Source: Jimgerdemannia flammicorona
Taxonomy: Eukaryota
Assembly: GCA_003990765.1 (NCBI GenBank)
Contig: RBNJ01000198.1
Location: 1-37,041 of the forward strand
Direction: 5' to 3'
Length of the DNA stretch: 37,041 nucleotides
A program made the translations under genes and the position numbers. Shown one piece after another: positions 2,544 through 23,409 of this stretch (its first letter is position 1; every line of letters starts with the position of its first letter). Below the pieces are notes generated by a model. It saw nothing but the letters and a program-made list of their open reading frames with translations, made no database searches and had not been told where the DNA came from.

Positions 2544-3617
2544 ATGTCCAACCAACCTAGGAGCGGGTTCAGCCTAAAGGACGATATCGCCGTCGTCTGG
2601 AAAAACGCCGCCTTCCACGACGTGACCATCGTCTGCGCGGACGGCGTCAAGCTCGGCGCCTGCCGTTCTGTCCTCGCCGCGCGGTCCGACTTCTTTATGA
2701 CGATGTTTCTTGGAGACATGCGCGAGTCTGCCTCGAAGGAGATCGCCCTGCATGACATCGATTCGGAGGCCATGAAAATTGTCCTTGGCTACATCCACAC
2801 AGAGGCGGTCGATTCGGCTGCTCCCTTGATGGCGCTCGAGGTGTATCGCGCGGCGAGCTTCCTCCTGCTTCCCAAGCTCGTGGATATGGCAGTGGAGCTG
2901 GCGAAAGATGTCGAAGTCAAAGTAGCCGTACCGTTGCTCAACAAAGCCATTGGGTTCGTACCCAACAGCGAAGACAGTAAAGGGCTTTATGACATAATTC
3001 TCAAATCTTTTTGCAACCATCGCCTCGAGATAGGCGATCTCAATGACCTTACCGACGAAGCTCTGGAGCTAATACTCACACGACCCACGACAGTATTTAC
3101 CACATCCGAATATGACCTGCTGCTTTGCGTCATCGAATGGGCATGGGCTCGTACCGAGGACGCCCCACCTATAACCGAACGTCACGCGGTCTTCCGCATC
3201 CTGGATGACTTATCGGACTCCGACGTCAAAATTGGCATAGGGAATGGCCCTTCGCGCGCGGCCTTGGTGAAAATGTTGCAGCATATTCGTTTTACCCTCC
3301 TATGCCCCCACCGCTTGAGCTATCTCAACGGGGTCATTGACGCGCTCACCGACAATTCACCCCACTATAGCTCGGCACTTTATTATGCCTGCAGGAACAC
3401 CAAATGTTCTTCTGGGCACCCGTCGGAGTACCGATCCAAAGCTGTGTCCGGCCCCGTTGTTTCGAAGGACAGTAAGGTCGTAAGTTTCGTCAAAATGATT
3501 CTGAGGGCGCTGAAGCTGATAGTGCTGACGGCGCTGTTTGGCCTAATGGGGCTGGTGGCACTGATGGCGCTGGGTTCGCTGGAGGTGCGATCCCTCAGCG
3601 CATACAAGTGGGATTAG
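2544..3617 (+). CDS. BTB/POZ-BACK-like protein, SPRY domain disrupted, C-terminal hydrophobic tail (357 aa)
   Basis: BTB motif DVTIVC..G..LGACRSVLAARSDFF..MF...MRES...EI.L.DID.EAM..VL.YIHT. Aligns with the paralogs to about residue 310, then deletions and a frameshift end it early. Confidence 0.8.
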   Translation: MSNQPRSGFSLKDDIAVVWKNAAFHDVTIVCADGVKLGACRSVLAARSDFFMTMFLGDMRESASKEIALHDIDSEAMKIVLGYIHTEAVDSAAPLMALEVYRAASFLLLPKLVDMAVELAKDVEVKVAVPLLNKAIGFVPNSEDSKGLYDIILKSFCNHRLEIGDLNDLTDEALELILTRPTTVFTTSEYDLLLCVIEWAWARTEDAPPITERHAVFRILDDLSDSDVKIGIGNGPSRAALVKMLQHIRFTLLCPHRLSYLNGVIDALTDNSPHYSSALYYACRNTKCSSGHPSEYRSKAVSGPVVSKDSKVVSFVKMILRALKLIVLTALFGLMGLVALMALGSLEVRSLSAYKWD

Positions 3618-3779
3618 TTCGGACGTTGACAATGACGACGGCATAACGTTCCATTTGGACATGAAAATGACACAGTCAATCAACAGAAGGAACTATGGTG
3701 TTTCTGGGACAATCTTCCAGATGTTGTATACCCTGCTGTATCATTGTTTTCTGAAAATAAATACCGTTTATATCTCTAG
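3618..3779 (+). pseudogene. Remnant of the SPRY C-terminus of the first copy, beyond its premature stop
   Basis: Pieces ITFHLDMKM, SINRRNYGV and WDNLPDVVYPAVSLF can be read after the stop codon. Confidence 0.85.
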
Positions 3780-5285
3780 CTGCTTAATTTGTGTCTTTTT
3801 ATTTCTTTTTTTACCTCTCTGCTTTCAATTCCCTGATACATGGTTACGATGTCGTCATATATTGCTTATATGCTCTTAATAAAATTTATAAACATCGCAT
3901 ACTATCTTCTCCACTCTAAAAATCTTTACGATAGTACATTTTTCTTCCGCGCAGCATTACATATCTTGATCTCTATGCTCGCAGGACGGAATTTGATCGA
4001 TTCAGAGATTTCGCTCTTTAGAAATTTCGAATTAGAAATCCTATGAACTAAACGACCACTTGGTCATGCCTACAACCTCCAAAATTCATTCGGAGTGGAA
4101 CGCGCAGCTCTGTATCTATGGGAGTAAGCCATATCGATTGCTTGGTTTATAAAGCATGGATCGGCGTAATCTTATGGAGACGATTGACGCCAGGTTAAAT
4201 GCAAATGGTTTTATCGGTAGCTGAGAGGCGTCAGATGGTTGCCATACCTTTTTAAAGATGCTCAATGAAAGTACCTTGAATAATATTTCAATCTACCATA
4301 TGATGGCAAAGACCAAAACAGTTAAATACACTGGATGATAAGCAAAGATACTGAACATGTGCCGGCCCTTAGGTATTGAGCAATTTGCTGCAAAGCCATT
4401 TGATCATATGCCACAAAGGAGACATGCATATTGGCCATCAAAAGCCAATAGGACCATTAATCATCATTGGTCAGAATTGTTGTATATACGGCATTCAAAC
4501 AAAGATAAACCCAGCGAATACGTGGGATTACAAGACGCCAGAAGTGTCTAACCCGAGGTGACCGACCATTGCACCGTTTACGCGAACACAAAGACCGGGG
4601 CTTTTACATATCATGTATAATATATTTTGTTGCTTGTTAATTAACCTGGGTGTCCACGGTTCGTCATTCTCCTGGACATGTCCTGACGTCATCCTGGCCT
4701 CCTTGATCGTCCTCACTCTTATTCAATTCACTCTCTTCCACTTCGTCAAAGCCACCCCCTCCTCTCATCACTTTTTTTTTTCAAAATATCATTTCTCCAC
4801 CGACATAAACCCATGTACCCTCAACGCTTCCACAACGACCCATTTCACCACATCCCCACTCTCAAGCGGCAATCTAAACCGCTTTGCTCCTGCACACCCC
4901 ATCACCGCTGCCATCACAAACTTCACCCATACCCCGCTGCATATCTGCAGGCCGAGCCTCCCCACCCACGAACCTCGACACGCGGCACTATTATCAGCAA
5001 AATGTATGCTAGCTGGCCTCATAATATTTCAAAGGTAGGGTAGCCTTCCGATATATAAGACTTTTGGGTAAAAATGATCACACGCCCCTATCCCTTTCAA
5101 ACGGAAATACCGGGTACTTTTTAAAGGAGCAAATCACATTCATGGAGGTTCAGGACAAGGAAAAAGTGCTGAGTATATTGGAGTGTCCCGGATGGCAGAC
5201 CGTCACATCATAAGATATACAATCATACGAAGGAGTTATAATCAAAGCTATTCAACAACGATTTTTTAATTTACGAAATGCAATA

Positions 5286-5323
<38 letters not shown>

Positions 5324-5683
5324 ATAGAAACCATCGTAATCTGGTTGTGTATTTGTATCAGATTTTACGAATTAAGTGAACTTTTATTAACTAACGCGCC
5401 ACATTCCTACTCCTAAAGCACAAAAAGAAGTTTACAATTTAAAATTGTGGAGAGAAGGTAATTGTCTTGGGTAATATATTCACCAGGATCAAACGGCCTA
5501 TTGAAATGCCGCTGCCTACATGCGTAAACTAGTTTGTATCATTTCCACCTTCACACGCTTCTAAGAATAGCTGAAAGCGAGTAGATCTACGATACCACAG
5601 TCTTCCCGCTTGCGGGGTCGAGTTAACAGGGAACACTACCTTGAGCTAGTGTTCCAGAAGTCCGGAGTGGAAGACATGTGTAC

Positions 5684-6592
5684 CTTACAGCGAAACCAGT
5701 AAAGAACTTTGACATACTTTTCAAATCTTTTTGAAATCACCGCTTGAGATAGGCGATCTCAATGACCTTACCGACGAAGCTCTGGAGCTAATACTCACAC
5801 AGCCCAAGGCGACAGTCTTCAATACACCCGAATGGGCATGGGATCGTAACGGGGACGCCCCATCTATAACCGAATGTCACGCGGTCTTCGACATCATTCT
5901 CGTAGGGAATGGCCCCTCACGCGCGGCCTTAGTGGAAATGTTGCAGCATATTGATTTCACGCTCATATGCCCTCATCGCTGGAGCTATCTCAACAGGGCC
6001 ATTGACGCGCTCACCGACAATTGACCCCTCTACGCTCGGCCATTTATCATCCCTACATGTACACCAGACGTCCTAATGGTGTCCCCAATGGGGCCGATCC
6101 AAACTATCGTCCAGTATCGTTCTTTCGGAGAACGGTACAGTCGTAAGTTTCCCCAGCTTACCTTTAAAGTCGCGGACGGTGCGAGCCTCTAGAGTATGCC
6201 ACGCGGATATTATTGGGCTCTGCGAGTGGGATGTTGTCGTCCAATCGGTCGGCTGCCTCGGGATTGAAGTGAGATTGGGAGATAAATCGTTGATACGTTC
6301 GAACGGGCTATGTCTTGTGGATTGGCCAAAACGGCGTGGATTTTCGGAGCTATGATCGAGGGAGGAAACGTTATTCTGTCACCGATGTACCAGTACGCCG
6401 CCCCCTATGGCACTGGCATTCACGATGGTGACATCATAACGTTCCTTTTGGACATGGAAGTGAACAGTTGCTCACTGTCAATCAATGGAAGGAACTATGG
6501 TGTTATCTGGGATAATCTTCCAAATGGTGTACATATATCTTGCTGTATCATTTTTTATCGAATCTAAATACCAATTTAGATCTCGAAGTTAA
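5684..6592 (+). pseudogene. 5'-truncated, frameshifted BTB-SPRY paralog (BTB missing; BACK-like and SPRY fragments)
   Basis: LEIGDLNDLTDEALELILT, LCEWDVVV and GDIITFLLDMEVNSCSLSINGRNYGVIWDNLP lie in broken frames with stops. Confidence 0.9.
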
Positions 6593-6985
6593 ACATTCTA
6601 CACACAAATTCATATAAATAAGTACATAGCTGATCGATTTATCTCTCTTTTCATTTCTTATTTACCTCTCTTCTCCCAATTCTCACTGATACATGGTTAA
6701 GATATTGCCAAACATTGCGCTCTTATGGAGATTACTAAATATCACATACACTCTACAAATCTTTACAATGGTATATTGTTCTTCCGCGCAACTCTCGATC
6801 TCTATGCTCGCACGGCATACAGAGGAATTCCATAGATACAGATATACTTCGCTGTTTAAAATTTTCGAATCTTATTCTTTAGCACAAATGTTTGGCACAC
6901 GTCCGAAACAGGAATCATATGAGCTAAACGATCACTACAACCACCAACATTCGTTCGGAATGCAACGCGCGGCACTATACCTATG

Positions 6986-7473
6986 TGTAAGGCTTCGAAT
7001 GGTTCACAGTAAATGGGTCATCCGATTCGGATCGGATTAAATCCGACCTTAATTTTAGCGCAAGGAACGATCCTCCGCTTATACCATCCAGGACGTTCTA
7101 TCCCGTTCAGAACGCTTCAACCCGTCCGGAACGGTTTGCCCTGGACCTTGTCAATTAAACCGTACCTTATAGTTTAAGCCTGTTTAGTTTAGCGTAGCTT
7201 AGTCAGAGGACCGTTGCGCAGCGACTATCTACAACCGCAGTCATATTCGAACCACAGTAAGGTCCAAAGGCAAGGCGCGCCACTTAGTCACCCTTAATAT
7301 AGGATATTTGTAAAAACACCCTAGTAGTTTAGCAGTTGCCTTTGCTCGCCTTGCCTGTGACTACCTTTGCTTATTGCCTTGGTAACTTGTTCTAACAATA
7401 GACTGCGCCAGATTGGATCGAACTGCGCCGGATCGGACTGGATTGCAGAACACCTAGTAAAGCCGGCGTAACA
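6986..7473. mobile_element. Putative solo LTR (~488 bp) replacing the normal intergenic spacer
   Basis: Sequence absent from the other units. Starts TGTAAGGC and ends GCGTAACA (TG...CA with imperfect terminal inverted repeat). No target-site duplication visible. Confidence 0.6.
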
Positions 7474-7490
7474 CAACACAACAAACAACC

Positions 7491-8888
7491 ATGTCCAATC
7501 AGCCTAGAAGCGGGTTCAGCCTGAAGAACGATATCGCCGTCGTCTGGACCAACGCCGCCTTCCACGACGTGACCATCGTCTGCGCGGACGGCGTCAAGCT
7601 TGGCACCTGCCGTGCTGTCCTCGCGGCGCGGTGCGACTTCTTTATGGCAATGTTTTTTGGAGGGATGCGCGAGTCCACTTCTAAGGAGATCGCTCTGCGT
7701 TCCATCGATTCGGAGGCCATGAAAGTTGTCCTTGAGTACATCCACACAGAGGCGATCGATTCGGCTGTTCCCTTGATGGTGGCCAAGGTGTATCTCGCGG
7801 CGAAATTCTTCCTGCTTCCCAAACTCGTGGATATGGCACTGGAGCTGGCGAAAAAAGTCAAAGTCAAAGGAGCCGTGCTGCTTCTCAACAAAGCCATTGC
7901 GTCCGTATCATACAGCGAAGACAGTAAAGATCTTTATGACATAATTCTCAAATGTTTTTTCAAGCACCGCCTCAAGATAGGCGATCTCGATGAGCTTACC
8001 GACGAAGCCTTGGAGCTAATACTCACAAGATCCAAGGCGACAGCCTTCAGAACACCCGAGTATGACTTGCTTATTTGCGTCGTCGAATGGGCATGGGCTC
8101 GCAACAGGGATGCCCCACCTATAACCGAACGTCGCGCGGTCTTCGACATCCTAGGCGACTTATCAGATTTCGACGTCAAAATTGTCATAGGGAATGGCCC
8201 CTCGCGCGCGGCATTGGTGAAAATGTTGCAGTATATTAATTTAAGCCTCATATGCCCTCACCGCTTGAAGCATCTCAACGGGGCCATTGACGCGCTCACC
8301 GACAATTCACCCTACTACAACTCGGCCCTTTATTATTCCTGCATGAACACCAAATGTTCTTTTGGGCACCCATCGAAGTACCGTGGCCATCCTAAATGGT
8401 GTCCCCAATGGGACAGATCCAAATTGGTGTCCGGCGTCGTTGTTTCGGAGGACGGTACGGTCGTAAGTTCCCCCGGATTTTATTTGGGGTCGCCGACGGC
8501 GCGAGCCTCCAGCGAATGCCTCGCGGATGATAATGGACTCTGCGAGTGGGATATCGTTGTCGAATCGGTCGACGAGGACGGGTTCATTGAAGTCGGATTG
8601 ATCAATGAATCGTTCAATACGTTACAATGTGCCATGTGGGGTTTCCAAGCTACTATCGAGGAGGGAATCATCATCCTACCACGGATGCACCAGAGCGCTG
8701 GCCCCTATGGCACCGGCGTTGGTAATGGCGACGTCATAACGTTCCATCTGGACATGGAAATGCACAATTGCTCACTGTCAATCAACGAAAAAAACTATGG
8801 TGTCATCTGGGACAATCTTCCAGATGTTGTATATCCTGCTGTATCATTGTTTTCCGGAACTAGTTACCGATTTAGAGCACGATCTTAA
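7491..8888 (+). CDS. BTB/POZ-BACK-like-SPRY/B30.2 protein (465 aa), putative Cullin-3 substrate adaptor
   Basis: Intact intronless ORF. N-terminal BTB motif; SPRY motifs EWDIVV...EVGL, GD.ITFHLDM...SLSIN..NYGVIW.NLP..VYPAVSL. Has an 8-aa in-frame deletion in SPRY relative to paralogs. Confidence 0.92.
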   Translation: MSNQPRSGFSLKNDIAVVWTNAAFHDVTIVCADGVKLGTCRAVLAARCDFFMAMFFGGMRESTSKEIALRSIDSEAMKVVLEYIHTEAIDSAVPLMVAKVYLAAKFFLLPKLVDMALELAKKVKVKGAVLLLNKAIASVSYSEDSKDLYDIILKCFFKHRLKIGDLDELTDEALELILTRSKATAFRTPEYDLLICVVEWAWARNRDAPPITERRAVFDILGDLSDFDVKIVIGNGPSRAALVKMLQYINLSLICPHRLKHLNGAIDALTDNSPYYNSALYYSCMNTKCSFGHPSKYRGHPKWCPQWDRSKLVSGVVVSEDGTVVSSPGFYLGSPTARASSECLADDNGLCEWDIVVESVDEDGFIEVGLINESFNTLQCAMWGFQATIEEGIIILPRMHQSAGPYGTGVGNGDVITFHLDMEMHNCSLSINEKNYGVIWDNLPDVVYPAVSLFSGTSYRFRARS

Positions 8889-8949
8889 AATATTCTTAAA
8901 TATTTTGCACCAAAATTTGTATAAATAAATACATAGCTGATCAATATAT

Positions 8950-8984
<35 letters not shown>

Positions 8985-10855
8985 CATTTCATTTCGTTTC
9001 TTTCCACTTCCAATTCCCACTGATACATGGTTATGATATTGCTATACATTACGCTTTATGAAAATTTGTAAACATCAAATACTATATTCTCCATCTACAA
9101 GTCGTTACAAAGAGAAATTGTTCCTCTGCGCAGCATGACATATTTCGATTTCTATGCTCGCACGGCGTACAGGAGAATTCTATCGATTCAGATATTTCGC
9201 TGTTTATAAAATTTTGTGTCATATCCTCCGGCACAGAAAGCCTGTGAGCTAAAAAAAAAAATCACCACAACCTTCAACATTCGTGCGGAATACAACGTGC
9301 GGCGTTGTACCTATAAGAGTAAACCATATTGGTTGCTTGGTTTATAAAGCGTGTATCAGTGTAATCTTCAACGTCAGATAAAAGTAACCGGTATGACTTT
9401 GCCACGGGAATTCGGATAGTTGAGAGGCGTCTGATAATTGGCATACATTTTAAAAGAAGCTCAATGAAAATACATGGGCGAACGAACGGACAAAGATGCG
9501 AACACGTGCCGCCCCTCACATTCAAAAGGGACTTAGTCAGAAATCCTTGTACGACATTCAGAACAATAATATGCTCCAGAAGAGTCATCACAAACTAATC
9601 CAAGGTGCCCGATAATTGTGCCGTTTTACACGAACGCGATCAGACCATTGGGGGGGGTTTTTTTTTTTTGGTCATGTATATAATTATAGTTTGATTTTTC
9701 ATTAATTTGGGTGGAGGACGCCAATAATTTAAATAGCTATTGATCTTTAGGCTAACAGCATAAATAAAGTGCGGGGGGGTGCGTGAAGCACGTTTTCTCG
9801 TACAATCATTGGGGTACGATGGGGTAGTGGTATTTGGTGTCATTGTTGTAAAAAATTATTGATATCATAGTTTGTAAAGTAACTCGAGTGCTGACTGGAA
9901 GTGGTTGATGTGCAGATTCCGATATCTTCAAAAAAAAATGGACCAGAGTATATACAAACCTCACCAACCTCTGGAAAATACAACACAAACCAACCTTCTG
10001 ACATCCTTCATCTCGCCATCACCCTTCTGGACTTCGCTATCTGATTATCCTCGACCCTCGGCGACGACCCTTTTCTCCACATCCCCACTCGCAAGCGGCA
10101 ATCTAAACCATCTCGATCCTGCGCGCCCCTACCCCACCGTCATTACAAACTTCACCCACATCAGCCTCCGCACCAAAGGCGACACTCTCATCAACCAAAT
10201 GTATGCTTGATTGTCATAATATTTAAAGCGGGGAACCTGCACGAGAATCTTAATTTGAAATTGTCGCACGCCATCCGCTAGAGGGAATCATCAGGTACTT
10301 TGGATACTTTATTAAAGGTGCCAACCACCTTCATGGCGTTATAATCTGCCTATGAATTCGCATCGGATCTTACGAATTAAATAAATCTTTGACCGCTTTC
10401 CTACTCCCACAGTTTACAACTATTCATAATTAAAAATTGTGTGTAGAAAATAATTATCTTGGGCAATGTACTGGATCAAACGGAGCGACATGAACGGGGT
10501 CCAGAAGTTGCGGTTCTCCTATCCGGCTCGATAACATGACGCTGCCTACATGAGTAAACGTAGTTTGCCTTAAAAAGAGTGTATGTATTACCATTAGATA
10601 GTCTTCCCGCTCTCATTCGAATTAAACACCATAAGTCCGTGACGTGTGTGAAAGACCTCGCTGAGAAAGCCTAAAAATGAACATGTTGAAATTGCACGCG
10701 TTCTTGTCGATTCTATTTATACAGCCTTCGCAATCTAATACTATCTATAATCGACGTAATGGTCACATCGTTCCACAATCCAAATTAGACACGTACCTTA
10801 CAACGTGTTCACCTTGTTCTCTCTCAGCCACCCCCTTGATACACAACAAATAACC

Positions 10856-12322
10856 ATGTCTAATCAGCCTAGCAGCGGTTTCAGCCTGAAGGATGATATC
10901 GCCGTCGTCTGGACCAACGCCGCCTTCCACGACGTGACCATCGTCTGCACGGATGACGTCAAGCTCGGTGCCTGCCGTGCTGTCCTCGCCGCGCGGTCCG
11001 ACATTTTTATGGCAATGTTTCTTGGAGGCAAGCGCGAGTCCGCCTCGAAGGAGATCGCTTTGCATGACATCGATTCGGAGGCCATGAAAATAGTCCTTGA
11101 GTACATCCACACAGAGGCGATCATTTCGGCTGCTCCCTTGATGGCGCTCGAGGTGTATCGCGCGGCGAGCCTCCTCCTACTTCCAAGGCTCGTGGATATG
11201 GCACTGGAGCTGGCGAACGAAGTCGAAGTCAAAGTAGCCGTGCCGCTCCTCAACAAAGCCATTGCGTCTGTACCCCACAGCAAAACCAGTGGAGAACTTT
11301 ATGACGTACTTTTCAAATCTTTTTGCAAGCATCGCCTCGAGATAGGCGATCTCAATGACCTTACCGACGAAGCTTTGGAGCTAATACTCACACGACCCGC
11401 GACAGTCTTCAACACATCCGAGTATGACCTGCTGCTTTGCGTCGTCGAATGGGCATGGGCTCGTAACCGGGACACCCCATCTATAACCGAACGTCGCGCG
11501 GTCTTCGACAACCTGGGAGACTTATCAGCCTTCGACGTCAAAATTGCCATAGGGGATGGCCCCTCGCGCGCGGCCTTGGTGAAAATGTTACAGCATATTA
11601 ATTTAACCCTCATATGCCCTCACCGCTTGAAGCATCTCAACGGGGCCATTGACGCGCTCACCGACAATTCACCCCACTACAGCTCGGCCCTTTATCATGC
11701 CTGCATGAACACCAAATGTCCTTCTGGGCACCCGTCGAAGAACCGCGATTATTCTAAATGGTGTCCCCAATGGGACCGATCCAAATTGGTGTCCGGCCTC
11801 GTTGTTTCGGAGGACGGTACGGTCGTGAGTTTTCCCAGAACAATTTTTGGGTCGCTAAAGCTGACGGTGCTGAAGGGGCTGGCGAGGCCGACGGGGCCGA
11901 CGGGGTTGGCGGCGCGAGCCTCCAGCGTTTGCCTCGCGGATGCCAATGGACTCTGCGAGTGGGATGTCGTCGTCGAATCGATCGACGAGTATGGGTTCAT
12001 CGAAGTGGGATTGGTCAATGAATCGTTCAATACGTTCGAACGAGCCATGTCGAATGGATTGGCCGCAACGGCGTGGGGTTTCGAAGCTACGATTAAGGGG
12101 GGAAACATCATTCTGCCACCGATGAACAAGAGCACTGGCTATGGCACCGGCGTTGTTAATGGCGACGTCATAACGTTCCATTTGGACATGAAAATGCATA
12201 ATTGCTCACTGTCAATCAACGGAAGGAACTATGGTGTCATCTGGGATAATCTTCCAGGTGTTGTATATCCTGCTGTATCGTTGTTTGTCGGAAATAGATA
12301 CCGATTTAAATCTCGAACATAA
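10856..12322 (+). CDS. BTB/POZ-BACK-like-SPRY/B30.2 protein (488 aa)
   Basis: Start set at the conserved MSNQP ATG (aaccATG context). Same domain motifs, with an expanded loop before ARASS. Confidence 0.92.
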   Translation: MSNQPSSGFSLKDDIAVVWTNAAFHDVTIVCTDDVKLGACRAVLAARSDIFMAMFLGGKRESASKEIALHDIDSEAMKIVLEYIHTEAIISAAPLMALEVYRAASLLLLPRLVDMALELANEVEVKVAVPLLNKAIASVPHSKTSGELYDVLFKSFCKHRLEIGDLNDLTDEALELILTRPATVFNTSEYDLLLCVVEWAWARNRDTPSITERRAVFDNLGDLSAFDVKIAIGDGPSRAALVKMLQHINLTLICPHRLKHLNGAIDALTDNSPHYSSALYHACMNTKCPSGHPSKNRDYSKWCPQWDRSKLVSGLVVSEDGTVVSFPRTIFGSLKLTVLKGLARPTGPTGLAARASSVCLADANGLCEWDVVVESIDEYGFIEVGLVNESFNTFERAMSNGLAATAWGFEATIKGGNIILPPMNKSTGYGTGVVNGDVITFHLDMKMHNCSLSINGRNYGVIWDNLPGVVYPAVSLFVGNRYRFKSRT

Positions 12323-13099
12323 ATATTCTATACGAAATTTGTATTGTTTCTTTTCTACCCCATTGCTCATTGATACTAAGTTAAGATATTATACCTTGCT
12401 TATATACTCATTGTGAAAATTTGTAAACATCACAAATTATATTCTTCACTCTACAAATCTTGACAATGGTACATTTTCGGTGCAACGTGATATATGTCGA
12501 TCTCCGTACTCGCGCAGCGTATAAGATAATTCCATCAATTCAGATGTTTCGCTGTATAAAAATATCGAATCCTATTCACTACACCCACCCTCCAACATTC
12601 GTTCGAAATGCAACGCGCGGCGCTGTACCTATGTGAGTAAGCCATATCAGTTGCTTGATTTAAAGAGTGTGGATAAGTATAATCCTGTGGAGACGATTGA
12701 CGTCAGATCAAATGCAAATGTAAACGGTACGGTTTTGCTAGGGTAGCTGAGAGGCGTCAGATGGTTGCCATACTTTTTTTTAAAGAAGTTGAATGAAAGT
12801 ATCATTGACTAGATATTTCATACAACAATCACAAAGGCACTGAACGGGTAAAGATACCGAATATGTGCGTTATTCAGAAATAAAATGAACCAACAATCGC
12901 ATGAATATAATTCGGCAAAACTTGTGGATTTCAAAATACTCCTGCGAACGTGATCAGACCAAACAGCTATTGGCCTTTAGGTTAACAGCATAAATTACGT
13001 AGTGCTAGGCTTTGGCCAAAGTGCATTGGCGTGTGTGAAGCACGATTTTTCGTAAAATCGTTAGGGTACGATATAAATGGGTTCTCTAGACATCTCAAT

Positions 13100-13740: not shown

Positions 13741-14093
13741 GGCGTTATAATCTGGCATCGGATCTTACGAATTAAATGAACCTTTGGCCGCTTTCCTGCT
13801 GCAGTTCACAACTATTAATGGTTAATTATTGTGAGTAGAAAAATAATTATCTTGGGCAATGCACTGGATCAAACGGGGCGACATAAACGGGAGGTCCTCC
13901 TATCGGCCAGATAACGTGACGCTACCTAATTACATGAGTAAACCTAGTTTGTCTTTATAGGCTTCTAGGACAAGTGAAAAAAGTGCATGTGTGACCACCA
14001 GACAGTCTTCCGCTCGCGTTCGAATTAAGCAGGGAACACGCATTATGAAACTAACGTATATATATTATCTTATAATTTCGCAGTGACCTTGTC

Positions 14094-14637
14094 CAGGGGT
14101 ACAGTGGCGAGAGGTATTCTAAAAATTACTTCATACTTTGTTTTAAGATTATTTTTCTATAAATCTACGATTTCATTTTTCAAATTGAATGTTAGGATGT
14201 TGAGTTTTAGTTATTTAAAGTTATATATGCGGAGGAAAATTGAAAAATAAGGAAAAACAATCACTATATAGTGAATATTCAACAAAACTAAGCTTGCTGG
14301 ATTCGCCTGATTAAGGGAGGAAATTGACAAAACCTGTATTGTCGGAAAGCCCTTAATCAGGCGAATCCAGCAAGCTTAGTTGAATTTGGATAAATTTTCA
14401 TCCGACCCGTTCACGGATACATAATAGTCACAACAACTCAAATTGAAATATGAGGAAAGGCAGTCACGATTGGTTGGCAACAATGATGTCACCCAAATTG
14501 GTGATTTTAATAATTCGGATATCAAAATTTATTTAGACTTTATTCTAATTATTTATTAGGCCTTATTCTAATCTCCAAGTGACTGCTCCTTAAAATGGAA
14601 ATAAATATCACGTGATGTCGGGACTACGCCACTATCT
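14094..14637. mobile_element. MITE-like (possibly hAT-like) insertion ending ~36 bp upstream of the ATG
   Basis: Absent at the equivalent site of the 21148 unit (gtgactttgtc...ttctctgtcagtcaccc). Ends CAGTGGCGAG (14102) and CTACGCCACTA (~14634) form an imperfect TIR. No 8-bp TSD seen. Confidence 0.55.
14286..14381. repeat. Perfect 32-bp inverted repeat with 32-nt loop
   Basis: AACTAAGCTTGCTGGATTCGCCTGATTAAGGG (14286-14317) and its exact reverse complement (14350-14381). Confidence 0.97.
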
Positions 14638-14673
14638 TTCTCCGTCAGTCACCCTTGATACACACAAACAACC

Positions 14674-16107
14674 ATGTCCAACCAACCTAGAAGCGGTTTC
14701 AGCCTAAAGGACGATATCGCCGTCGTCTGGACCAACCCCACCTTCCACGACGTGACCATCGTCTGCGCGGACGGTGTTAAGCTTGGCGCCTGTCGTGCTG
14801 TCCTCGCGGCGCGGTCTGATTTCTTTATGGCAATGTTTTTTGGAGGCATGCACGAGTCCGCCTCGAAGGAGATCGCTCTGCGTGATATCGATTCGGAGGC
14901 CATGAAAATTGTACTTGAGTACATACACACAGAGGCTATCGGTTCGGCTGCTCTCTTGAGCGCGCTCGACGTGTATCGTGCGGCGAGTTTCCTTCTACTT
15001 CCCAAACTCGTGGATATGGCACTGGAGCTGGCCAAAGAAGTTGAAGTCAAAGTAGCCGTGCCGCTGCTCAACAAAGCCATTGCGCTCGTACCCTATAGCG
15101 AAGCTAGTAAAGAACTTTATGAAATACTTTTCAAATCTTTCTGCAATCATCGCCTCGAGATAGGCGATCTCAATGACCTTACCGACGAAGCTCTGGAGCT
15201 AATACTCACACGACCCAAGGCGACAGTCTTCAATACACCCGAGTATGACTTGCTGCTTTGTGTCGTCGAATGGGCATGGGATCGTAGCGGGAACGCCCCA
15301 TCTATAACCGAACGTCACGCGGTCTTCGACATCCTAAGCGACTTATCGAACTTCGACATCAAAATTGTCATAGGGAATGACGCGACCTTGGTGAAAATTT
15401 TGCAGCATATTGATTTCACGCTCATATGCCCTCACCGCTTGAAATATCTCAACGGGGTCATTGACGCGCTCACCGACAATTCACCCCACTACAACTCGGC
15501 CCTTTATTATGCCTGCATGGACACTAAATGTTCTTCTGGCCACCCATCAAAGTGCCGCGGTTATTCTAAATGGTGTCTCCAATGGGACCGATCCAAATTG
15601 GCGCCCGACATCGTTGTTTCGGAGGATGGTACTGTCGTAAGTTTGCCCAAAACGATCTCGGGGTCGTCATCTGAGGATGTGTTGGTGGCCCGGACGGCGC
15701 GAGCCTCCAGCGTATGCCTCGCGGATGCTAGTGGACTCTGTGAGTGGGATGTTGTCGTTGAATCGTTCGGCTGGCGCGGGATCCAAGTGGGATTGGTCAA
15801 TGAATCGTTCGATATGTTTGGAGGAGCCATGTTTAATGGAATGGCCGCAACGGTGTGGATTTTCCGAGCCGATATCAAAAACGGAAGCATCATTCTGCCA
15901 TTGATGCCGCACAGCTCTGTCCCCTATGGCACCAGCGTTGGCATTGGCGACGTCATAACGTTCCATTTGGACATGAAAATGCACAATTGCTCACTGTCAA
16001 TCAACGGAAAAAAGTATGGTGTCATCTGGGATAATCTTCCATCTGTTGTCTATCCTGCTGTATCGTTGTTTCCTGAAACTAAATACCGATTTAGACCTCA
16101 TACTTAA
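14674..16107 (+). CDS. BTB/POZ-BACK-like-SPRY/B30.2 protein (477 aa)
   Basis: Intact intronless ORF with BTB and SPRY motifs as in the paralogs. Confidence 0.93.
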   Translation: MSNQPRSGFSLKDDIAVVWTNPTFHDVTIVCADGVKLGACRAVLAARSDFFMAMFFGGMHESASKEIALRDIDSEAMKIVLEYIHTEAIGSAALLSALDVYRAASFLLLPKLVDMALELAKEVEVKVAVPLLNKAIALVPYSEASKELYEILFKSFCNHRLEIGDLNDLTDEALELILTRPKATVFNTPEYDLLLCVVEWAWDRSGNAPSITERHAVFDILSDLSNFDIKIVIGNDATLVKILQHIDFTLICPHRLKYLNGVIDALTDNSPHYNSALYYACMDTKCSSGHPSKCRGYSKWCLQWDRSKLAPDIVVSEDGTVVSLPKTISGSSSEDVLVARTARASSVCLADASGLCEWDVVVESFGWRGIQVGLVNESFDMFGGAMFNGMAATVWIFRADIKNGSIILPLMPHSSVPYGTSVGIGDVITFHLDMKMHNCSLSINGKKYGVIWDNLPSVVYPAVSLFPETKYRFRPHT

Positions 16108-17870
16108 ATATTCTACACAAATTTATATCATTTCTTTTCTACATCTCCGCTCCCAGTCTCCCACTGATACATGATTAAGATATTGCTATACCTTTCTTAT
16201 ATACTCATTATAAAATTGTAAACATCACAAATTATATTCTCCACTTTACAATAGTACATTTTCGGCGTAAAATGACATATCTCGATCTCCATACTCGCAC
16301 AGCGTACAAGAGAATTTTATCGATTCAGATATTTCACTGAATAAAAAATACTACACCCTCCAACATTGTTCGAAATGCGCTGTACTTATGGGAGTAAGCT
16401 ATATCAGTTGCTTGGTTTATAAGAGTGCAGATCAGTATAATACTATGGAGACGATTGACGTTGGATCGAATGCAAATGTAAACGGTATGGTTTTGTCATG
16501 GGAACTCGGGTAGCTGAGAGGCGTCAGATGGTTGTCATACTTTTTTTCGGTGAAAGTATCTACCATTGACCAGATATTTCATATAACGGTCACCAAGGCA
16601 CTGAACGGGCAAAGGTACGAATATGTGCATAGCAATAGGGACCATTAGCCATCATTAATCCGAAATCCTTGTATGTCATTTATAAACAAAAATGAACCCA
16701 AGGCGTTCTGGAAAACTTGCGGATTTCAAAATACTCCGAGGTGCCCGATAATTGCGAACGTGATCAGATCAATATATTTTCTGTTTCATTGTACATAAAC
16801 CTTGGTGGAGAGCGCCCATGTTTTTAAATAGCTATTGACATTTAGGTAACATAAGATATTTAGTACTAGGCTTTGGCCAAAGTGCATTGGCGTGCGTGAA
16901 GCACGATTTCTCGTACAATCGTTAGGTACGATGATGTAAATCGGCGCTTCGGCGTGATAGTCCCATTGCTCTAACAATTTTAGATATCTCAGTTTTTAAA
17001 GTAACCCGACGGAGGTGTCTGAAAGAATATTATGTGTAGATTTCGATGATCTTCCAGAGTATAAACTTCGCAAACCTCTGACAAATACAACACAAACCTC
17101 CTTTTCTGACATCCATCAACTCTAGATCTTCCTCGCCGTCATTCTCCTTGCCTTTGCTATTGACATTATCCTGATTACCTTCGCCATACTTGCCATCCTA
17201 TTCAACATCATCCTCTGCCATTCCCACGGCAACACCTCTACCAACACAAATACGTATGTTTTCAACATCTCGGCGACGACCCCTTTCTCCACACTCTCAC
17301 TTGCAGGCGGCAATCAAAGTCACCTCAACCCTGCGCGTCCCTCCCAACCGTTATCACAAACTTTTCCATACCCCGCAGGCTGAATCTCCATACCCACTGC
17401 AACACTTTCGTCAATAAAATGTATAGTTGATGGTCTCATAATATTTCAAAACGGGGAAGTACACGAAAACCTGCACCACACTCTCCCAAGAACCCTTGGT
17501 ACTTTTGGGGTACTTTTTTTTAAGGAGCCAACCACCTTTATGGCGTTATAATCTGGCTTTGAATTCACATTGGAGCTTACGAATTAAATGAATCCTTGGC
17601 CGCTTTCCTAATCCTACAGCCCACAACTATTCATAATTAAAATTGTGAGTAGAAATAAAAATAATGATCATGGATCAAATAGAGTGATGTGGATGGGGCC
17701 CAGAAGTTGCGGCCCTCTATGACATGACGCTGCTTATATGCGTAAAGCTGGTTTACCTTCATAGACTTCTAAAAGAGTGTAGGTATGACCATGCGATTTG
17801 TCCAATTTATCGCCGTGACGTTATTCACTTCTCCCTCAGCCACCTCCTTGATACACAAAATAACACAACC

Positions 17871-19292
17871 ATGTCCAATCAGCACAGAAGTGGTTTCAGC
17901 CTGAAGGACGATATTGCCGTCGTCTGGACCAACCCAGCCTTCCATGACGTGACCATCGTCTGCGTAGACGGTGTTAAGCTTGGCGCCTGCCGTGCTGTCC
18001 TCGCGGCGCGGTCTGACTTCTTTATGGCAATGTTTTTTGGAGGCATGCATGAGTCCACCTCTAAGGAGATCGCTCTGCGTGACATCAGTTCGGAGGCCAT
18101 GAAGATTGTCCTTGAGTACATCCACACAGAGGCGATCGTTTCGGCTGATCCTTTGATGGCGCTCGACGTGTATTGTGCGGCGAGCTTCCTCTTGCTTCCC
18201 AAACTCGTGGACATGGCATTGGAGCTGGCCAAAGAAGTCGAAGTCAAAATAGCCGTGCCGCTGCTCAACAAAGCCATTGCGTCCGTACCCTACAGCGAAA
18301 CCAGTAAAGAACTTTATGACATACTTTTCAAATCTTTTTGCAATCATCGTCTCGAGATAGGAGATCTCAATGAGCTTACCGGCGAAGCTCTGGAGCTAAT
18401 ACTCACACGACCCAAGGCGACAGCCTTCAATACACCCGAGTATGACTTGCTGCTTTGCGTCGTCGAATGGGCATGGGATCGTAACGGAGACGCCCCATCT
18501 ATAAGCGAACGTCACGCGGTCTTACACATTCTGGGCGACTTATCGGACTTCGATATCAAAATTGTCATAGGGAATGGCCCCTCACGCGCGGCCTTGGTGA
18601 AAATGTTGCAGCATATTAATTTAACCCTCATATGCCCCCATCGCTTGAAGTATCTCAACGGAGCCATTGACGTGCTCACCGACAATTCGCCCCACTACAA
18701 CTCGGCCCTTTATCATGCCTGCAGGAACATCAGATGTTCTTCTGGCCACCCATCAAAGTTTCGCGGTTATTCTAAATGGTGTCCCCAATGGGACCGATCG
18801 AAATTGACGTCCGGCCTCGTTGTTTCGGAGGACGATACGGTCGTAGGGTTCTTCAGTTTTACTCTTTGTGAGTCGCGGACTGCGCGAGCCTCCAGCGTAT
18901 GCCTCGCGGATGCTAATGGGCTCTGCGAGTGGGATGTCGTCATTGAATCGTGCCGCTGGCGCGGGATCGAAGTGGGATTGGTCAATAAATCGTTCAATAC
19001 ATTTGGACGGGCCATGTCTGATGGATTGGCCGCAACGGCGTGGGCTTTCCGAGCTAAGATCGGGGGAGGGGAAATTATTCTATCACCGATGCAACAGAGC
19101 GCTAGCCCCTATGGCACCGGCGTTGGCAATGGCGACGTCATAACCTTCCATTTGGACATGAAAATGCACAATTGCTCACTGTCAATTAACGGAAGGAACT
19201 ATGGTGTCATTTGGGAGAATCTTCCAGATGTTGTATATCCTGCTGTATCATTGACTGCCGGAAATAGATACCGATTTAGACCTCGAATTTAA
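17871..19292 (+). CDS. BTB/POZ-BACK-like-SPRY/B30.2 protein (473 aa)
   Basis: Start at the conserved MSNQ ATG. Intact BTB and SPRY motifs. Confidence 0.92.
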   Translation: MSNQHRSGFSLKDDIAVVWTNPAFHDVTIVCVDGVKLGACRAVLAARSDFFMAMFFGGMHESTSKEIALRDISSEAMKIVLEYIHTEAIVSADPLMALDVYCAASFLLLPKLVDMALELAKEVEVKIAVPLLNKAIASVPYSETSKELYDILFKSFCNHRLEIGDLNELTGEALELILTRPKATAFNTPEYDLLLCVVEWAWDRNGDAPSISERHAVLHILGDLSDFDIKIVIGNGPSRAALVKMLQHINLTLICPHRLKYLNGAIDVLTDNSPHYNSALYHACRNIRCSSGHPSKFRGYSKWCPQWDRSKLTSGLVVSEDDTVVGFFSFTLCESRTARASSVCLADANGLCEWDVVIESCRWRGIEVGLVNKSFNTFGRAMSDGLAATAWAFRAKIGGGEIILSPMQQSASPYGTGVGNGDVITFHLDMKMHNCSLSINGRNYGVIWENLPDVVYPAVSLTAGNRYRFRPRI

Positions 19293-20154
19293 GTTTTCTA
19301 TTTACAAATTTGAATTGTTTCTTTTCTACCTCATCGCTCCCAATTTCCCACTGATACCTGGTTAAGATATTGCCATACCTTACTTACATACTCTTTATAA
19401 AAATATGTAAACATCAAATGCTATATTCTCCTTCTACAAATCTTTACAATGGTACATTTTTCTTCCACGCAGCATGACGTATCTCAATCTCCATGCTCGC
19501 GCGGCGTACAAGGGAATTTCATCGATTCAGATATTTTGCTGTTTAGAATTTCAAGTTACATCCTCCTGCTACGAGTCGACGTAAATGATTGGCACACGTC
19601 CGAATTATAAATTCCGTGAGCTAAACGATTACTACAACCTCCAACATTCGTTCGAAATGCAACACGCGGCCTGTACCTACGGAAGTAAGCCATACCATTT
19701 GCTTAGTTTATAGAGTGTGGATCAGTGGAGGCGATTGACGTCGGATCAAATGCAAATGTAAACGGGATGGTTTTTGCCAAGGAATTTGGGTTGCTGAGAG
19801 GCACCAGATAGTTGCCGTACTTTTTATCAGTAAAAGTATCTATTTCATATAACGGCAAAGATACCGAATATGTGCATAGCAATAGGGACCATTAGCCATC
19901 ATTAATCGGAGCTTTTTGTACATTATTCAGATACAAAAACGAACCAACTCTCACACGGATAACAACGTCCGAGGCCGCCGATAATTGCACCGTTTACGCG
20001 AACGTGATCAGACCAATATGTTTCTGTTGCATTGTTCATTAATCAGATGGAGGACGCCAAAGTGCATTGATGTGCGTGAAGCACGATTTCTCGTACAATC
20101 GTTAGGGTACAATCGGCGCTTCGGTGTGGTAGTCCCATTGCTCTTGATCTCAGT

Positions 20155-20705
20155 TTTTTAAATAACCCGACGGAAGTGCCTGAAAGAATATTTTGTGCTG
20201 ACTTTGATGATCATCGAAAAATGGACCCCCTTTTCTGATATCCATCGTCTAGAACTCCTCCTCGCCATCGTCCTCCTAGACTTCGCTATTGTTATTATCC
20301 TGATTATCCTCGTCACCCCTGTTATCCTCGCCAACATCTTCATTCTTTTCCACTTCGTTAAAGTCATCTTCCTCCGCTCCACCGACACAAACCCGTGTGC
20401 CCTCAATATTTCGGCGACGACCCTTTTCTCCATCCCCACTCGCAAGCGGCAATATAAACAATCTCAATTCTGCGCGTCGCAACTCCCCCCATCATTGCAA
20501 GTTTCGCCCGCACCCCGCAGGTTGAGCCTCCGCACCCATGGCGACATTCTCATCAATCAAATGTATACTTGATGGTTTCATAATATTTCAAAGTGGGGGA
20601 AACTCCAAAGGTTGAAAATTTCACTCACCCCCAAGAACCCTTATCTGTTCAAAGGGAAACATTAGGTGTTTTTCGATACTTTTTTTACGGAGCCAACCAC
20701 CTTCA
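20155..20705 (-). pseudogene. Decayed divergent ORF relic with acidic segment; boundaries approximate
   Basis: Minus-strand GGAEEDDFNEVEKNEDVGEDNRGDEDNQDNNNSEV*EDDGEEE; homologous to the other units. Confidence 0.5.
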
Positions 20706-21147
20706 AGGCGTTATAATCTGGCTACGAATTGGCATTGGAACTTACGAATTAAATGGACCTCTGGCAGCTTTCTTACTGCTACAGTCCACAACTATTCGTG
20801 ATTAAAAATTGTGGGAAGAAAATAATTATCTTGGGCAATGTACTGAATCAAACGGAGCGACATAAACGGGGGGTCTCCTATCGGCCCGATAACATGACGC
20901 TGCCTAATTACATGAGTAAACCTAGTTTGCCTTCATAGGCTTCCAGGACAAGTGAAAAAAGTGTATATATGACCACCAGACAGACCCCCCGCTCGCGTTC
21001 GGATTAAGAAAGGAACACTCATTATGAAATTAGCGTATATTATCCGAGTCTTTGAGCCAAATCGTATAGGTGACTGAAATTTCGAAGTGACTTTGTCGAT
21101 ATATTTTAGATGTTCTCTGTCAGTCACCCTGATACACACAAACAACC

Positions 21148-22563
21148 ATGTCCAACCAGCCTAGAAGCCTGAAGGACGATATCGCCGTCGTCTGGACCAA
21201 CTCCGCCTTCCACGACGTGACCATCATCTGCGCGGACGGTGTTAAGCTTGGCGCCTGCCGTGCTGTCCTCGCGGCGCGGTCTGATTTCTTTATGGCAATG
21301 TTTTTTGGAGGCATGCACGAGTCCGCCTCTAAGGAGATCGCTCTGCGTGACATCGATTCGGAGGCCATGAAAATTGTCCTTGAGTACATCCACACAGAGG
21401 ATATCGGTTCGGCTGCTCCCTTGAACGCGCTCGACGTACATCGTGCGGCGAGCTTCCCTCTACTTCCCAAACTCGTGGATATGGCACTGGAGCTGGCCAA
21501 AGAAGTTGAAGTCAAAGTAGCCGTGCCGCTGCTCAACAAAGCCATTGCGTTCGTACCCTACAGCGAAATCAGTAAAGAACTTTATGACGTACTTTTCAAA
21601 GCCTTTTGTAATCACCGCCTCGAGATAGGCGATCTCAATGATCTTACTGACGAAGCTCTGGAGCTAATACTCACACGACCCAGGGCGACAGTCTTCAATA
21701 CACCCGAGTATGACTTGTTGCTTTGCGTCGTCGAATGGGCATGGGATCGTAACGGGGACGCCCCATCTATAACCGAACGTCACACGGTCTTTGACATCCT
21801 AGGCAACTTATCGGACTTCGACATCCTAGGCGACTCATCTGACTTCGACATCAAAATTGTCATAGGGAATGACCCCTCGCGCGCGGCCTTGGTGAAAATG
21901 TTGCAGTATATTGATTTCACGCTCATATGCCCTCACCGCTTGAACTATCTCAACGAGGCCATTGACGTGCTCACCGATAATTCATCCCACTACAACTCGG
22001 CTCTTTATCATGCCTACAGGAACATCAGATGTTCTTCTGGCCACCCATCAAAGTTTCGCGGTTATTCTAAATGGTGTCCCCAATGGGACCGATCCAAATT
22101 GGCGTCTGGCGTCGTTGTTTCGGAGGGCGGTTTGGTCCCTATGTCGCGGACGGCGCGAGCCTCCAGTGTATGCCTCGCGGTTGCTAATGGGCTCTGCGAG
22201 TGGGATGTCGTCGTTGAATCGTCCGGCTTGCGCGGGATCGAAGTGGGATTGGTCGATGGATCGTTCAATACGTTTGGACGGGCCATGTCTAATGAATTGG
22301 CCGGAAAGGCGTGGATTTTCCGAGCCAAGATCGAGGGAAAGGGGGTTATTTTGCTACCGATGGAGCGGAGCGCTGGCCCCTATGGAACCGGCGTTGGCAA
22401 TGGCGACGTCATAACGTTCCATTTGGACATGAAAATGCACAATTGCTCACTGTCGATCAACGGAAGGAACTACGGTGTCATCTGGAATAATCTTCCAGAT
22501 GTTGTATATCCTGCTGTAACAATTTTTCCTGGAACCAGTTACCGATTTAGACCTCGACCTTAA
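21148..22563 (+). CDS. BTB/POZ-BACK-like-SPRY/B30.2 protein (471 aa)
   Basis: Intact ORF. Carries a 27-nt in-frame duplication (DILGNLSDF DILGDSSDF), has lost GFS near the N-terminus, and has a shortened first SPRY loop. Confidence 0.92.
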   Translation: MSNQPRSLKDDIAVVWTNSAFHDVTIICADGVKLGACRAVLAARSDFFMAMFFGGMHESASKEIALRDIDSEAMKIVLEYIHTEDIGSAAPLNALDVHRAASFPLLPKLVDMALELAKEVEVKVAVPLLNKAIAFVPYSEISKELYDVLFKAFCNHRLEIGDLNDLTDEALELILTRPRATVFNTPEYDLLLCVVEWAWDRNGDAPSITERHTVFDILGNLSDFDILGDSSDFDIKIVIGNDPSRAALVKMLQYIDFTLICPHRLNYLNEAIDVLTDNSSHYNSALYHAYRNIRCSSGHPSKFRGYSKWCPQWDRSKLASGVVVSEGGLVPMSRTARASSVCLAVANGLCEWDVVVESSGLRGIEVGLVDGSFNTFGRAMSNELAGKAWIFRAKIEGKGVILLPMERSAGPYGTGVGNGDVITFHLDMKMHNCSLSINGRNYGVIWNNLPDVVYPAVTIFPGTSYRFRPRP

Positions 22564-23409
22564 ATATTCTATGCCCAAATGCTTCTTTTCTACCTCATTG
22601 CTCCCAATTCTCCACTGATATTTGGTTAAGATATTGCCAAAACCTTGCTTATAGAAATTTGTAAAAATCACATGCTATATAAATTTTTACAATGGTATAT
22701 ACATTATTCTTCCGCGCAGCACGACGTATCTCGATCTCCATACTCGTGTGGCGTACAAAGGAATTCCATCGATTCAGATATTTTGCTGTTTAGAAATTTC
22801 GAGTCATATTCTCCGGCAACGAGCCGACGCAACGTTTGGCACATGTCCGAATTAGAATCATGTGAGCTAAACGATCACTACAACCTCAAAAATTTGTTCG
22901 AGATGCTGTATCTATGGGAGTAAGCCATACCATTTGCTTGGTTTATAGAGTATGGATTAATGTAATCCTATGGAGACGATTGCCGTCGGATCAAATGCAA
23001 ATGTAGATGGTATGTGTTTATCATGGGAACTCGGGTAGCAGCGAGGCGTCAGATGGTTGCCATGCATTTTTAAAGAAGCTCTATGAAAGTATCCTTGATT
23101 AAATATTTCACATAACGGCCACAAAGGCAAAGATACCGAATATATGGATGGCAATAAGGACAATTAACCCATTAATTAGAAATCCTTGTACGTTATTCAG
23201 AAACAAAAATAAACCAACAATCGCATGTAGGGCGTTCGGGCAAACATGAATTTCAAATAATCCAGGAGTCGCCACAAACTAATTAATCCGAGGTGCCGGA
23301 TAATTGCGATCGCGATGGGGGGGGGGGTTGGTGTCATGTGTAATATGTATTCTGTTGCTCTGTTCATTAATCTGGGTAGAGGACCCCACGATTTACTATT
23401 GACCTTTAG

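Follow-up and report, generated by a model that had tools for sequence, protein, structure and literature searches.

A tandem BTB-SPRY gene array in a Mucoromycota fungus with diversifying selection confined to the SPRY region

We analysed a 37,041-nucleotide (nt) stretch of DNA from the Mucoromycota fungus Jimgerdemannia flammicorona (GenBank assembly GCA_003990765.1, contig RBNJ01000198.1, positions 1 to 37,041 of the forward strand), hereafter called the window, which contains a head-to-tail array of genes on the plus strand between positions 2544 and 22563. The genes encode proteins with an N-terminal BTB domain, an all-helical middle domain and a C-terminal SPRY domain. Seven units can be recognized, namely five intact open reading frames (ORFs), one copy whose SPRY has been gutted and one relic truncated at its 5' end (Table 1). 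Among the intact copies, only the SPRY region shows diversifying selection, and the BTB and middle domains are under purifying selection. We consider it probable that the array is a birth-and-death family of Cullin-3 (Cul3)-type substrate receptors whose SPRY recognition face is diversifying.

Organization and coding status of the array

The five intact ORFs have no introns and encode 465-488 amino acids (aa). They lie 3.2-3.8 kb apart, with start-to-start spacings of 3197-4947 nt across the array as a whole. The inter-gene spacers are homologous to one another (65-79% identity, blastn), so that the duplicated unit consists of a gene and its spacer, and the array is a tandem, birth-and-death one of seven such units of about 3.3-4.9 kb. 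In tblastn comparisons with copy c4, the first unit (c1) matches residues 1-328 at 77% identity over positions 2544-3500 and retains a relic of the last strands (c4 residues 446-472) at 3687-3767. The end of its ORF (3440-3617) is a long hydrophobic stretch rich in Leu, Ala, Val and Gly, derived from the loop-1 region. The sequence of the second unit (c1b) contains evident stops and breaks of the frame. An additional in-frame ATG lies upstream of c5 at 17724, which the other copies do not have.

Pairwise dS (synonymous divergence) among the five intact copies is 0.17-0.31. When random substitutions were simulated under neutrality, in numbers implied by the terminal branches only, the ORF stayed open in 5-15% of replicates per copy, which gives a product of approximately 1e-5 for all five. 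Each of the 13 gap blocks in the alignment of the intact copies preserves the reading frame, and the gene-wide ratio of nonsynonymous to synonymous change (dN/dS) is 0.48 by the Nei-Gojobori method (NG86) and 0.59 under model M0. Birth-and-death evolution, as proposed in the initial annotation of this DNA, is therefore supported, because two decayed copies stand beside five ORFs that would rarely all have been kept open under neutrality.

Two further observations concern the history of the array. A 27-nt tandem duplication in c6 (21785-21852, 2.5 copies) lengthens the helical middle domain by nine residues; this slippage event is recent, kept the frame and lies outside the SPRY. In addition, a low-depth contig (2.4) from sequencing run X1, whose RNA origin is only a guess, joins the SPRY of c2 at 8568 to that of c3 at 11993, omitting 3424 nt and carrying 11 different letters at the junction; possible origins of this contig are a collapse in the assembly, a further paralog, or an allele left one unit shorter by unequal crossover. 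Exact contigs from the same run cover parts of c1 (2607-3736), c3 (10919-12433) and positions 16306-16496 and none fall on c5 or c6, which provides no evidence on expression.

Table 1. Units of the array and features of copy c4, with positions in the window
Feature	Positions	Strand	Description
c1	2544-3767	+	BTB and middle domain kept (357-aa ORF 2544-3617); SPRY mostly deleted, frame lost
c1b	5680-6534	+	degenerate 5'-truncated pseudogene fragment; c4 residues 139-460 at 44% identity (tblastn)
c2	7491-8888	+	intact BTB-SPRY ORF, 465 aa
c3	10856-12322	+	intact BTB-SPRY ORF, 488 aa; longest loop 1; Lys at the Cul3-contact motif
c4	14674-16107	+	intact BTB-SPRY ORF, 477 aa; copy used for the structure model
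BTB/POZ domain of c4 (residues 21-118)	14734-15027	+	Pfam E 1.9e-19
M59-H60-E61 of c4	14848-14856	+	aligned to SPOP Met-Glu-Glu, alpha3-beta4 loop
Middle domain of c4, all-helical (residues 125-300)	15046-15573	+	helices in the model; 3-box/BACK-like extension of the BTB
SPRY beta-sandwich of c4 (residues 301-477)	15574-16104	+	Pfam, family profile and fold
Loop 1 of c4 (residues 325-339; segment 1)	15646-15690	+	indel hot spot; gap fraction 0.50 in 40 other family members
Hairpin turn of c4 (residues 365-368; segment 2)	15766-15777	+	entropy 3.23 bits in 40 other family members
Hairpin residues 396-413 of c4 (holds segment 3)	15859-15912	+	alternate strand positions, turn and next loop vary
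Last loop of c4 (residues 466-470; segment 4)	16069-16083	+	entropy 3.26 bits in 40 other family members
c5	17871-19292	+	intact BTB-SPRY ORF, 473 aa counted from the conserved MSNQ start
c6	21148-22563	+	intact BTB-SPRY ORF, 471 aa; shortest loop 1
Spacer after c6	22583-24122	+	homologous to the other inter-gene spacers (blastn, 69-79% identity); repeated unit ends here

Domain architecture and fold

The BTB domain was detected by Pfam in all six array ORFs scanned (E 3e-17 to 2e-19) and the SPRY in five of the six, the intact copies (21.9-33.3 bits), three of which score above the gathering cut-off of 26.3 bits. We assembled a family alignment of 45 sequences from a search of 1.84 billion representatives, which returned 13,649 matches at E<=1e-3 and 84 at E<=1e-30; Pfam detects the SPRY in 36 of these 45 members. 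The family profile matched the BTB of SPOP in the PDB (E 2e-19), as well as KBTBD2 and KLHL22 over the BTB plus the next helices. Over the SPRY, its matches ranged from E 1e-17 to 1e-9 (RanBP9/10, TRIM9, SPSB), led by RanBP9/10 (E 1e-17) and TRIM9 (E 8e-16) and including TRIM67, a nematode secreted SPRY protein and SPSB1-3. The SPRY of c4 used as a single sequence gave marginal PDB matches only (E 0.015).

An AlphaFold model of c4 built on the 45-sequence alignment reached a mean predicted confidence (pLDDT) of 86.5 and supersedes a poor model from a nine-sequence alignment (pLDDT 67). The top Foldseek matches to the c4 model are KBTBD2-CUL3 complexes. In VIA-align comparisons, the model superposed on RanBP10 (Z 19.0, root-mean-square deviation (rmsd) 3.5, 171 residues aligned), the TRIM67 PRYSPRY (Z 18.8, rmsd 2.3, 153 aligned), SPSB2 (Z 17.2, rmsd 2.4, 155 aligned) and the BTB of SPOP bound to Cul3 (4eoz; Z 17.5, rmsd 2.0, 113 aligned, 30% identity). 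We assign the C-terminal domain as a SPRY because the family profile, the AlphaFold model and the fold matches agree. For the middle domain the alignments are partial: profile positions 5-187 align to KBTBD2 11-184, and SPOP 182-362 aligns to model residues 6-297 (Z 16.4, rmsd 3.7), a fold search in which the helical part is barely tested. As Pfam BACK was found in none of the 45 family members, we call these approximately 175 residues BACK-like rather than BACK. The BTB-SPRY architecture put forward in the initial annotation is thus borne out by Pfam, profile and fold alike, and the domain searches recovered its BTB and SPRY but no BACK.

The closest proteins share 40-50% identity with the array. 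The nearest named relatives come from Jimgerdemannia flammicorona and Endogone sp. (Endogonales), followed in the Glomeromycotina by Ambispora, Paraglomus, Geosiphon and Rhizophagus clarus, and all are annotated as hypothetical or 'BTB domain-containing'. A protein Atlas returned Mucoromycota clusters, plus BTB/BACK/SPRY clusters in nematodes, and a metagenome scan gave six loci, all short BTB-only matches at 27-47% identity. Judged from these sequences, the intron-less BTB / helical 3-box-like / SPRY family appears to be specific to Mucoromycota. The BTB-helical module also occurs in relatives of other composition: P0061 carries an N-terminal caspase-like domain, and in P0045 an endonuclease/exonuclease/phosphatase domain precedes the BTB-SPRY.

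Where the paralogs vary

Mean pairwise amino acid identity among the intact copies falls from 0.86 (BTB), 0.80 (middle domain) and 0.81 (C-terminal part excluding four variable segments) to 0.35-0.53 within these segments. The initial annotation had recognized the same four segments and quoted 20 peptide strings from them, all of which are present in the five intact ORFs. Its claim that variation is concentrated there stands. Its description of near-invariant cores is too strong for the BTB, in which 84 of 117 ungapped columns are invariant, and variation also reaches beyond the four segments, into two long loops (c4 residues 377-393 and 408-413) and the exposed positions of the hairpin at 394-407. 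Loop 1 varies chiefly by in-frame insertions and deletions (indels), partly through slippage, and c3 carries a 9-nt tandem repeat there at 11863-11905. The codon alignment also contains in-register point substitutions between conserved flanks, and at each of c4 codons 365 and 405 the five copies have five different residues. In the 40 other family members the same turns show the highest column entropy (3.1-3.3 bits), with indels in loop 1, 377-393 and 408-426.

The placement of these sites can be compared with the SPSB proteins, whose ligands are contacted by five loops opposite the termini, including SPSB2 Arg68 in loop B, Thr102, Tyr120 and Val206-Trp207-Gly208 in loop E, according to the portion of the report available (PMC2923778). 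VIA-align pairs model residues 298-477 with SPSB2 38-218. Counted by offset from the ends of these ranges and not by residue alignment, loop B of SPSB2 falls near loop 1 and loop E near residues 465-468. In the 394-407 hairpin, the selected residues occupy alternate positions 396, 400 and 402, plus the turn and 405, a pattern that in the model fits one exposed hairpin face. A separate strand-parity argument for the placement of the variable sites, taken from the DSSP string, was dropped as unreliable.

Selection on the SPRY region

Codon evolution was studied with our own Goldman-Yang F3x4 site models over 448 ungapped codons of the five intact copies. For the whole gene, likelihood ratio tests (LRTs) favored a positively selected class in the comparisons of M1a with M2a (LRT 13.8, p 0.001), M7 with M8 (LRT 15.4, p 4.5e-4) and M8a with M8 (LRT 13.9, p 1.9e-4), and the same three comparisons on an alternative topology gave LRTs of 17-19. 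By domain, M1a versus M2a was significant in the SPRY region (columns 311-499, 154 codons; LRT 18.3-19.0, p ~1e-4 on three topologies), where M2a places 29% of codons at an omega (dN/dS) of ~3.0. No signal was obtained in the BTB (LRT 0, p 1), the middle domain (LRT 0.37, p 0.83) or the two combined (LRT 0, p 1). The initial annotation had anticipated a raised dN/dS in the variable loops relative to the BTB, and the ratio is 0.65 in the SPRY region versus 0.26 in the BTB by NG86 and 0.77 versus 0.32 under M0, with the class near 3 found in the SPRY only.

With residues of the SPRY grouped by DSSP class, a grouping independent of variability, dN/dS is 0.45 in strands and 0.84 outside them. The individual loops give 1.53 (loop 1), 1.00 (377-393), 0.88 (408-426), 2.07 (453-458) and 1.56 (466-468), and the conserved loop 345-354 gives 0.26. 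Coil in the BTB and middle domain has a dN/dS of 0.20 and 0.40, respectively, so a general tendency of loops to evolve fast does not explain the SPRY pattern. Of 21 sites with an M8 posterior above 0.8, 18 lie in the C-terminal part, which makes up 154 of the 448 columns (hypergeometric p 1e-6), although with five sequences these naive empirical Bayes posteriors are unreliable and serve as an indication only. Subject to this limit, the SPRY sites assigned an omega above 1 are c4 residues 339, 365, 367, 368, 384, 396, 400, 402, 403, 405, 410, 412, 413, 457, 467 and 470.

A non-adaptive origin of the loop variation has to be weighed at this point. Relaxed constraint on surface loops once duplicates are redundant, together with indels from slippage and gene conversion in patches, could have produced it, and omega values above 1 would then be an artefact of recombination or of the small sample. 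This would suit the predominance of indels and the 9-nt repeat in loop 1, and the decay of two of the seven units. Moreover, the PHI test gives p 0.004 for the SPRY region and p 0.028 for the whole gene, which indicates recombination or gene conversion in both, and p 0.31 for the BTB plus middle domain; the site patterns are mosaic, and informative sites move from supporting c4+c6 to supporting c5+c6 near column 270. Recombination can inflate site-model tests. In view of the PHI result and this switch, we ran the test again on star trees of three taxa, ten in all, in which no topology is involved. The SPRY region was significant in all ten (LRT 7.5-21.7; the triplets overlap and are not independent) and the BTB plus middle domain in none (LRT <=1.3). 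The signal also persists away from gaps, since removal of columns within three of a gap left 130 codons and an SPRY-region LRT of 17.1. In a parametric null under M1a, the largest LRT in 26 replicates was 6.38, with one replicate reaching 5.99 or more and none reaching 18.3. Finally, M2a outperforms M1a and M8 outperforms M8a, in which omega is fixed at 1, which indicates that the SPRY class lies above 1 and is not merely relaxed. Taken with the low dN/dS of BTB and middle-domain coil, these results make the non-adaptive explanation quite improbable.

The BTB domain as a putative Cul3 adaptor

Pairwise alignment places M59-H60-E61 of c4 opposite Met-Glu-Glu of SPOP and Met-Ser-Glu of KLHL3. 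In Cul3 complexes, SPOP Met233 or KLHL11 Phe130 enters a pocket of Cul3 and the adjacent Ser/Glu bonds to Cul3 helix H2, as stated in the available part of the source (PMC3597819). The M-x-E motif (M-H/R-E) is kept in c1 and, of the five intact copies, in all but c3 (c2, c4, c5 and c6), and E61 is invariant in the nine closest sequences. A homodimer was predicted for c4 residues 1-300 with a score of 0.52, compared with 0.00 for the best control; agreement among the three runs is at least 66% of contacts, the pLDDT of the partner is 78 or more, and the interface comprises residues 8-26, 40-47, 84-87 and 110-111. Among proteins of solved structure, 21 of 30 same-chain pairs and none of 23 single chains attained the mark used for this prediction. 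As many BTB dimers have already been solved, the pass may reflect only likeness to them.

Other features of the window

The remaining parts of the window hold nothing that the family searches recognized: Pfam found no family in the 20 other ORFs, and Rfam matches and tRNA genes were both absent from the window. Just upstream of the array, at 879-1775, lies a 17-nt tandem repeat (consensus unit ACACCGAACGGCCAAAG; 51.6 copies, 77% match), and the long minus-strand ORFs at these positions are artefacts of this repeat. Homopolymer tracts occur at 5287-5322 (A36), 8953-8984 (T32), 28125-28150 (T26) and 36910-36953 (T44); the A36 tract, situated between the decayed units c1 and c1b, could be the trace of a retroposed insertion.

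Downstream of the array, a strongly AT-rich block spans 24500-28200 (GC 0.28-0.35 versus 0.41-0.50 elsewhere). It is flanked by a 123-nt inverted repeat (25248-25370 / 28022-28144, 75% complementary) and may represent a transposon, now decayed, that had terminal inverted repeats. Beyond it, the minus strand carries a run of adjoining ORFs in differing frames (28654-31923; 288, 181, 105, 91, 252 and 131 aa) with a 30-nt tandem repeat at 28892-29012. Pfam matched none of the five ORFs of this run that were scanned (the 91-aa ORF was left out), and the run is either an intron-containing gene or a decayed gene.

A proposed mechanism and its alternatives

In the mechanism that we favor, the conserved N-terminal BTB module would dimerize and dock on Cul3, and the C-terminal SPRY would bind the protein that is to be ubiquitylated. 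After each duplication, selection for amino acid replacements and in-frame indels in the exposed loops and hairpins of the SPRY would then give each paralog a different ligand. Such ligands would most likely be non-self or selfish proteins that evolve fast.

Several points weigh against this reading. On the side of selection, only five sequences entered the tests, the codon models were run in our own implementation and not in PAML or HyPhy, and recombination has affected the SPRY region. On the side of architecture, the SPRY of two of the five intact copies scores under the Pfam cut-off, and the family is without a Pfam BACK. Two observations bear on docking itself. In c3 the motif reads K-R-E, with Lys at codon 59 where Cul3 adaptors carry a hydrophobic residue, and from its sequence c3 may dock poorly on Cul3 or serve as a dimer partner only. 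In addition, a close relative from Jimgerdemannia flammicorona, P0010 (RUP46980.1), matches profile positions 1-307 at E 2e-123 and continues into a C-terminal protein kinase domain with no SPRY, from which it follows that the BTB-helical module need not always present a substrate.

The kinase of P0010, the missing BACK and the c3 motif would also suit an alternative in which the BTB-helical module is a mere oligomerization scaffold for varied C-terminal domains (SPRY, kinase) and no Cul3 receptor. The SPRY would then bind endogenous partners in signaling or localization, and the duplicates would have become subfunctionalized. SPRY domains are indeed found outside ubiquitin (E3) ligases as well, for example in Ash2L and DDX1, which are among the structural and profile matches. 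Nevertheless, the BTB is nearest to the bona fide Cul3 adaptors SPOP, KLHL3, KBTBD2 and KLHL22, and the M-x-E motif has been retained in all but one of the intact copies. Purifying selection on the BTB together with positive selection on the SPRY is, furthermore, the pattern reported for cullin-ligase adaptors in the text available to us (PMC8120010). On balance, we regard a pure scaffold as unlikely and retain the Cul3-type receptor as the preferred reading.

A further alternative accepts diversified receptors of Cul3-based ligases and differs in the ligands, which would be polymorphic proteins of the fungus's own species, involved in self/non-self recognition at hyphal fusion or in the control of selfish nuclei, and not proteins of viruses or endobacteria. 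Hypervariable, tandemly duplicated recognition families of fungi are classically tied to allorecognition (het/NLR genes). The case for own-species ligands is drawn by inference from these families, and nothing in the window favors any class of ligand. Neither the six array ORFs nor the 20 other ORFs of the window gave a Pfam match to HET, NACHT or any other incompatibility domain, and we hold this alternative to be very unlikely.

The receptor reading can also be taken further. It is tempting to speculate that the early-diverging mycorrhizal Endogonales and Glomeromycotina possess innate-immunity-like Cul3 'restriction factors', in which the SPRY loops would be engaged in an arms race with proteins of mycoviruses, of Mollicutes-related or other endobacteria, or of transposons, and would mark them for degradation, convergently with TRIM5alpha/finTRIM of vertebrates and with MATH-BTB/F-box proteins of nematodes. 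We consider this extension possible yet doubtful. If it held, heterodimers between paralogs could multiply the available specificities.

Expanded BTB/POZ families are a long-noted and unexplained trait of mycorrhizal Mucoromycota genomes, as the available part of one report describes them (PMC8647823). The array provides one BTB/POZ sub-family with a concrete and testable reading, namely a conserved Cul3-type docking module joined to a SPRY face with a signature of diversifying selection that has statistical support. Were the reading correct, cullin-ligase-based recognition repertoires would reach into fungi, and the SPRY domains could be used as baits for what these poorly tractable symbionts defend themselves against or discriminate.

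Comparison with known systems

The published systems compared here are described as far as the accessible portions of the cited reports extend. Glomeromycotina such as Rhizophagus resemble the host of the array in being mycorrhizal Mucoromycota with expanded BTB/POZ families, which at times form tandem arrays and for which a role in perceiving the environment has been proposed (PMC8647823). In those portions, BTB/POZ genes are treated as one class (PMC8647823). In the open-access literature we found no description of a BTB-SPRY family or of selection on its SPRY loops.

The initial annotation called the array TRIM-like, which is apt for the recognition domain by analogy and inapt for the remainder of the protein. 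TRIM5alpha and the finTRIM proteins share with the array tandem duplication and the same recognition fold, in their B30.2 domain, as well as positive selection in the loops of that domain by M1a/M2a and M7/M8 and a first long loop that is a hot spot of indels and variation; as in the array, some finTRIM copies are without the recognition domain (PMC2657112). The PRYSPRY domains of TRIM67 and TRIM9 are among the best structural matches to the c4 model (Z 18.7-18.8). However, a Pfam scan of the six ORFs matched no RING or B-box family, and the N-terminus is a BTB, so the array proteins are not TRIM proteins. A coiled coil is lacking too, the E3 link is proposed to run through BTB-Cul3 instead of an intrinsic RING, and a residue-by-residue correspondence of the array loops to VL1-VL6 or v1-v4 of TRIM is putative at most.

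The SPSB1-4/GUSTAVUS proteins offer a precedent for a SPRY acting as the substrate receptor of a cullin-RING ligase (PMC2923778), as proposed for the array, and SPSB folds match the c4 model with Z 16-17. Their adaptor module is a C-terminal SOCS box that recruits Cul5, in contrast to the N-terminal BTB and proposed Cul3 link of the array, and their loops are conserved for one motif whereas those of the array diversify.

The mechanism has a closer parallel in the expanded MATH-BTB and F-box adaptor families than in TRIM. In nematode F-box and MATH-BTB proteins, the cullin-docking domain is under purifying and the recognition domain under positive selection (Thomas 2006, as summarised in PMC8120010), and in these families, as in the array, this contrast is found among paralogs. 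Both they and the MATH-BTB proteins of grasses have undergone lineage-specific local or tandem duplication (PMC8120010, PMC4091423), and in MATH-BTB proteins the BTB is the Cul3-docking module, as it is proposed to be here. The array differs in that its recognition domain is a C-terminal SPRY and not an N-terminal MATH or an FTH/FBA domain, and in that it belongs to a Mucoromycota fungus and is known from sequence alone. On the preferred reading, the family would be convergent with TRIM5alpha/finTRIM and with the MATH-BTB families of nematodes and grasses. A diversifying repertoire of cullin adaptors is thus a familiar principle, and it is the combination of BTB with SPRY and the fungal lineage in which it occurs that are new.

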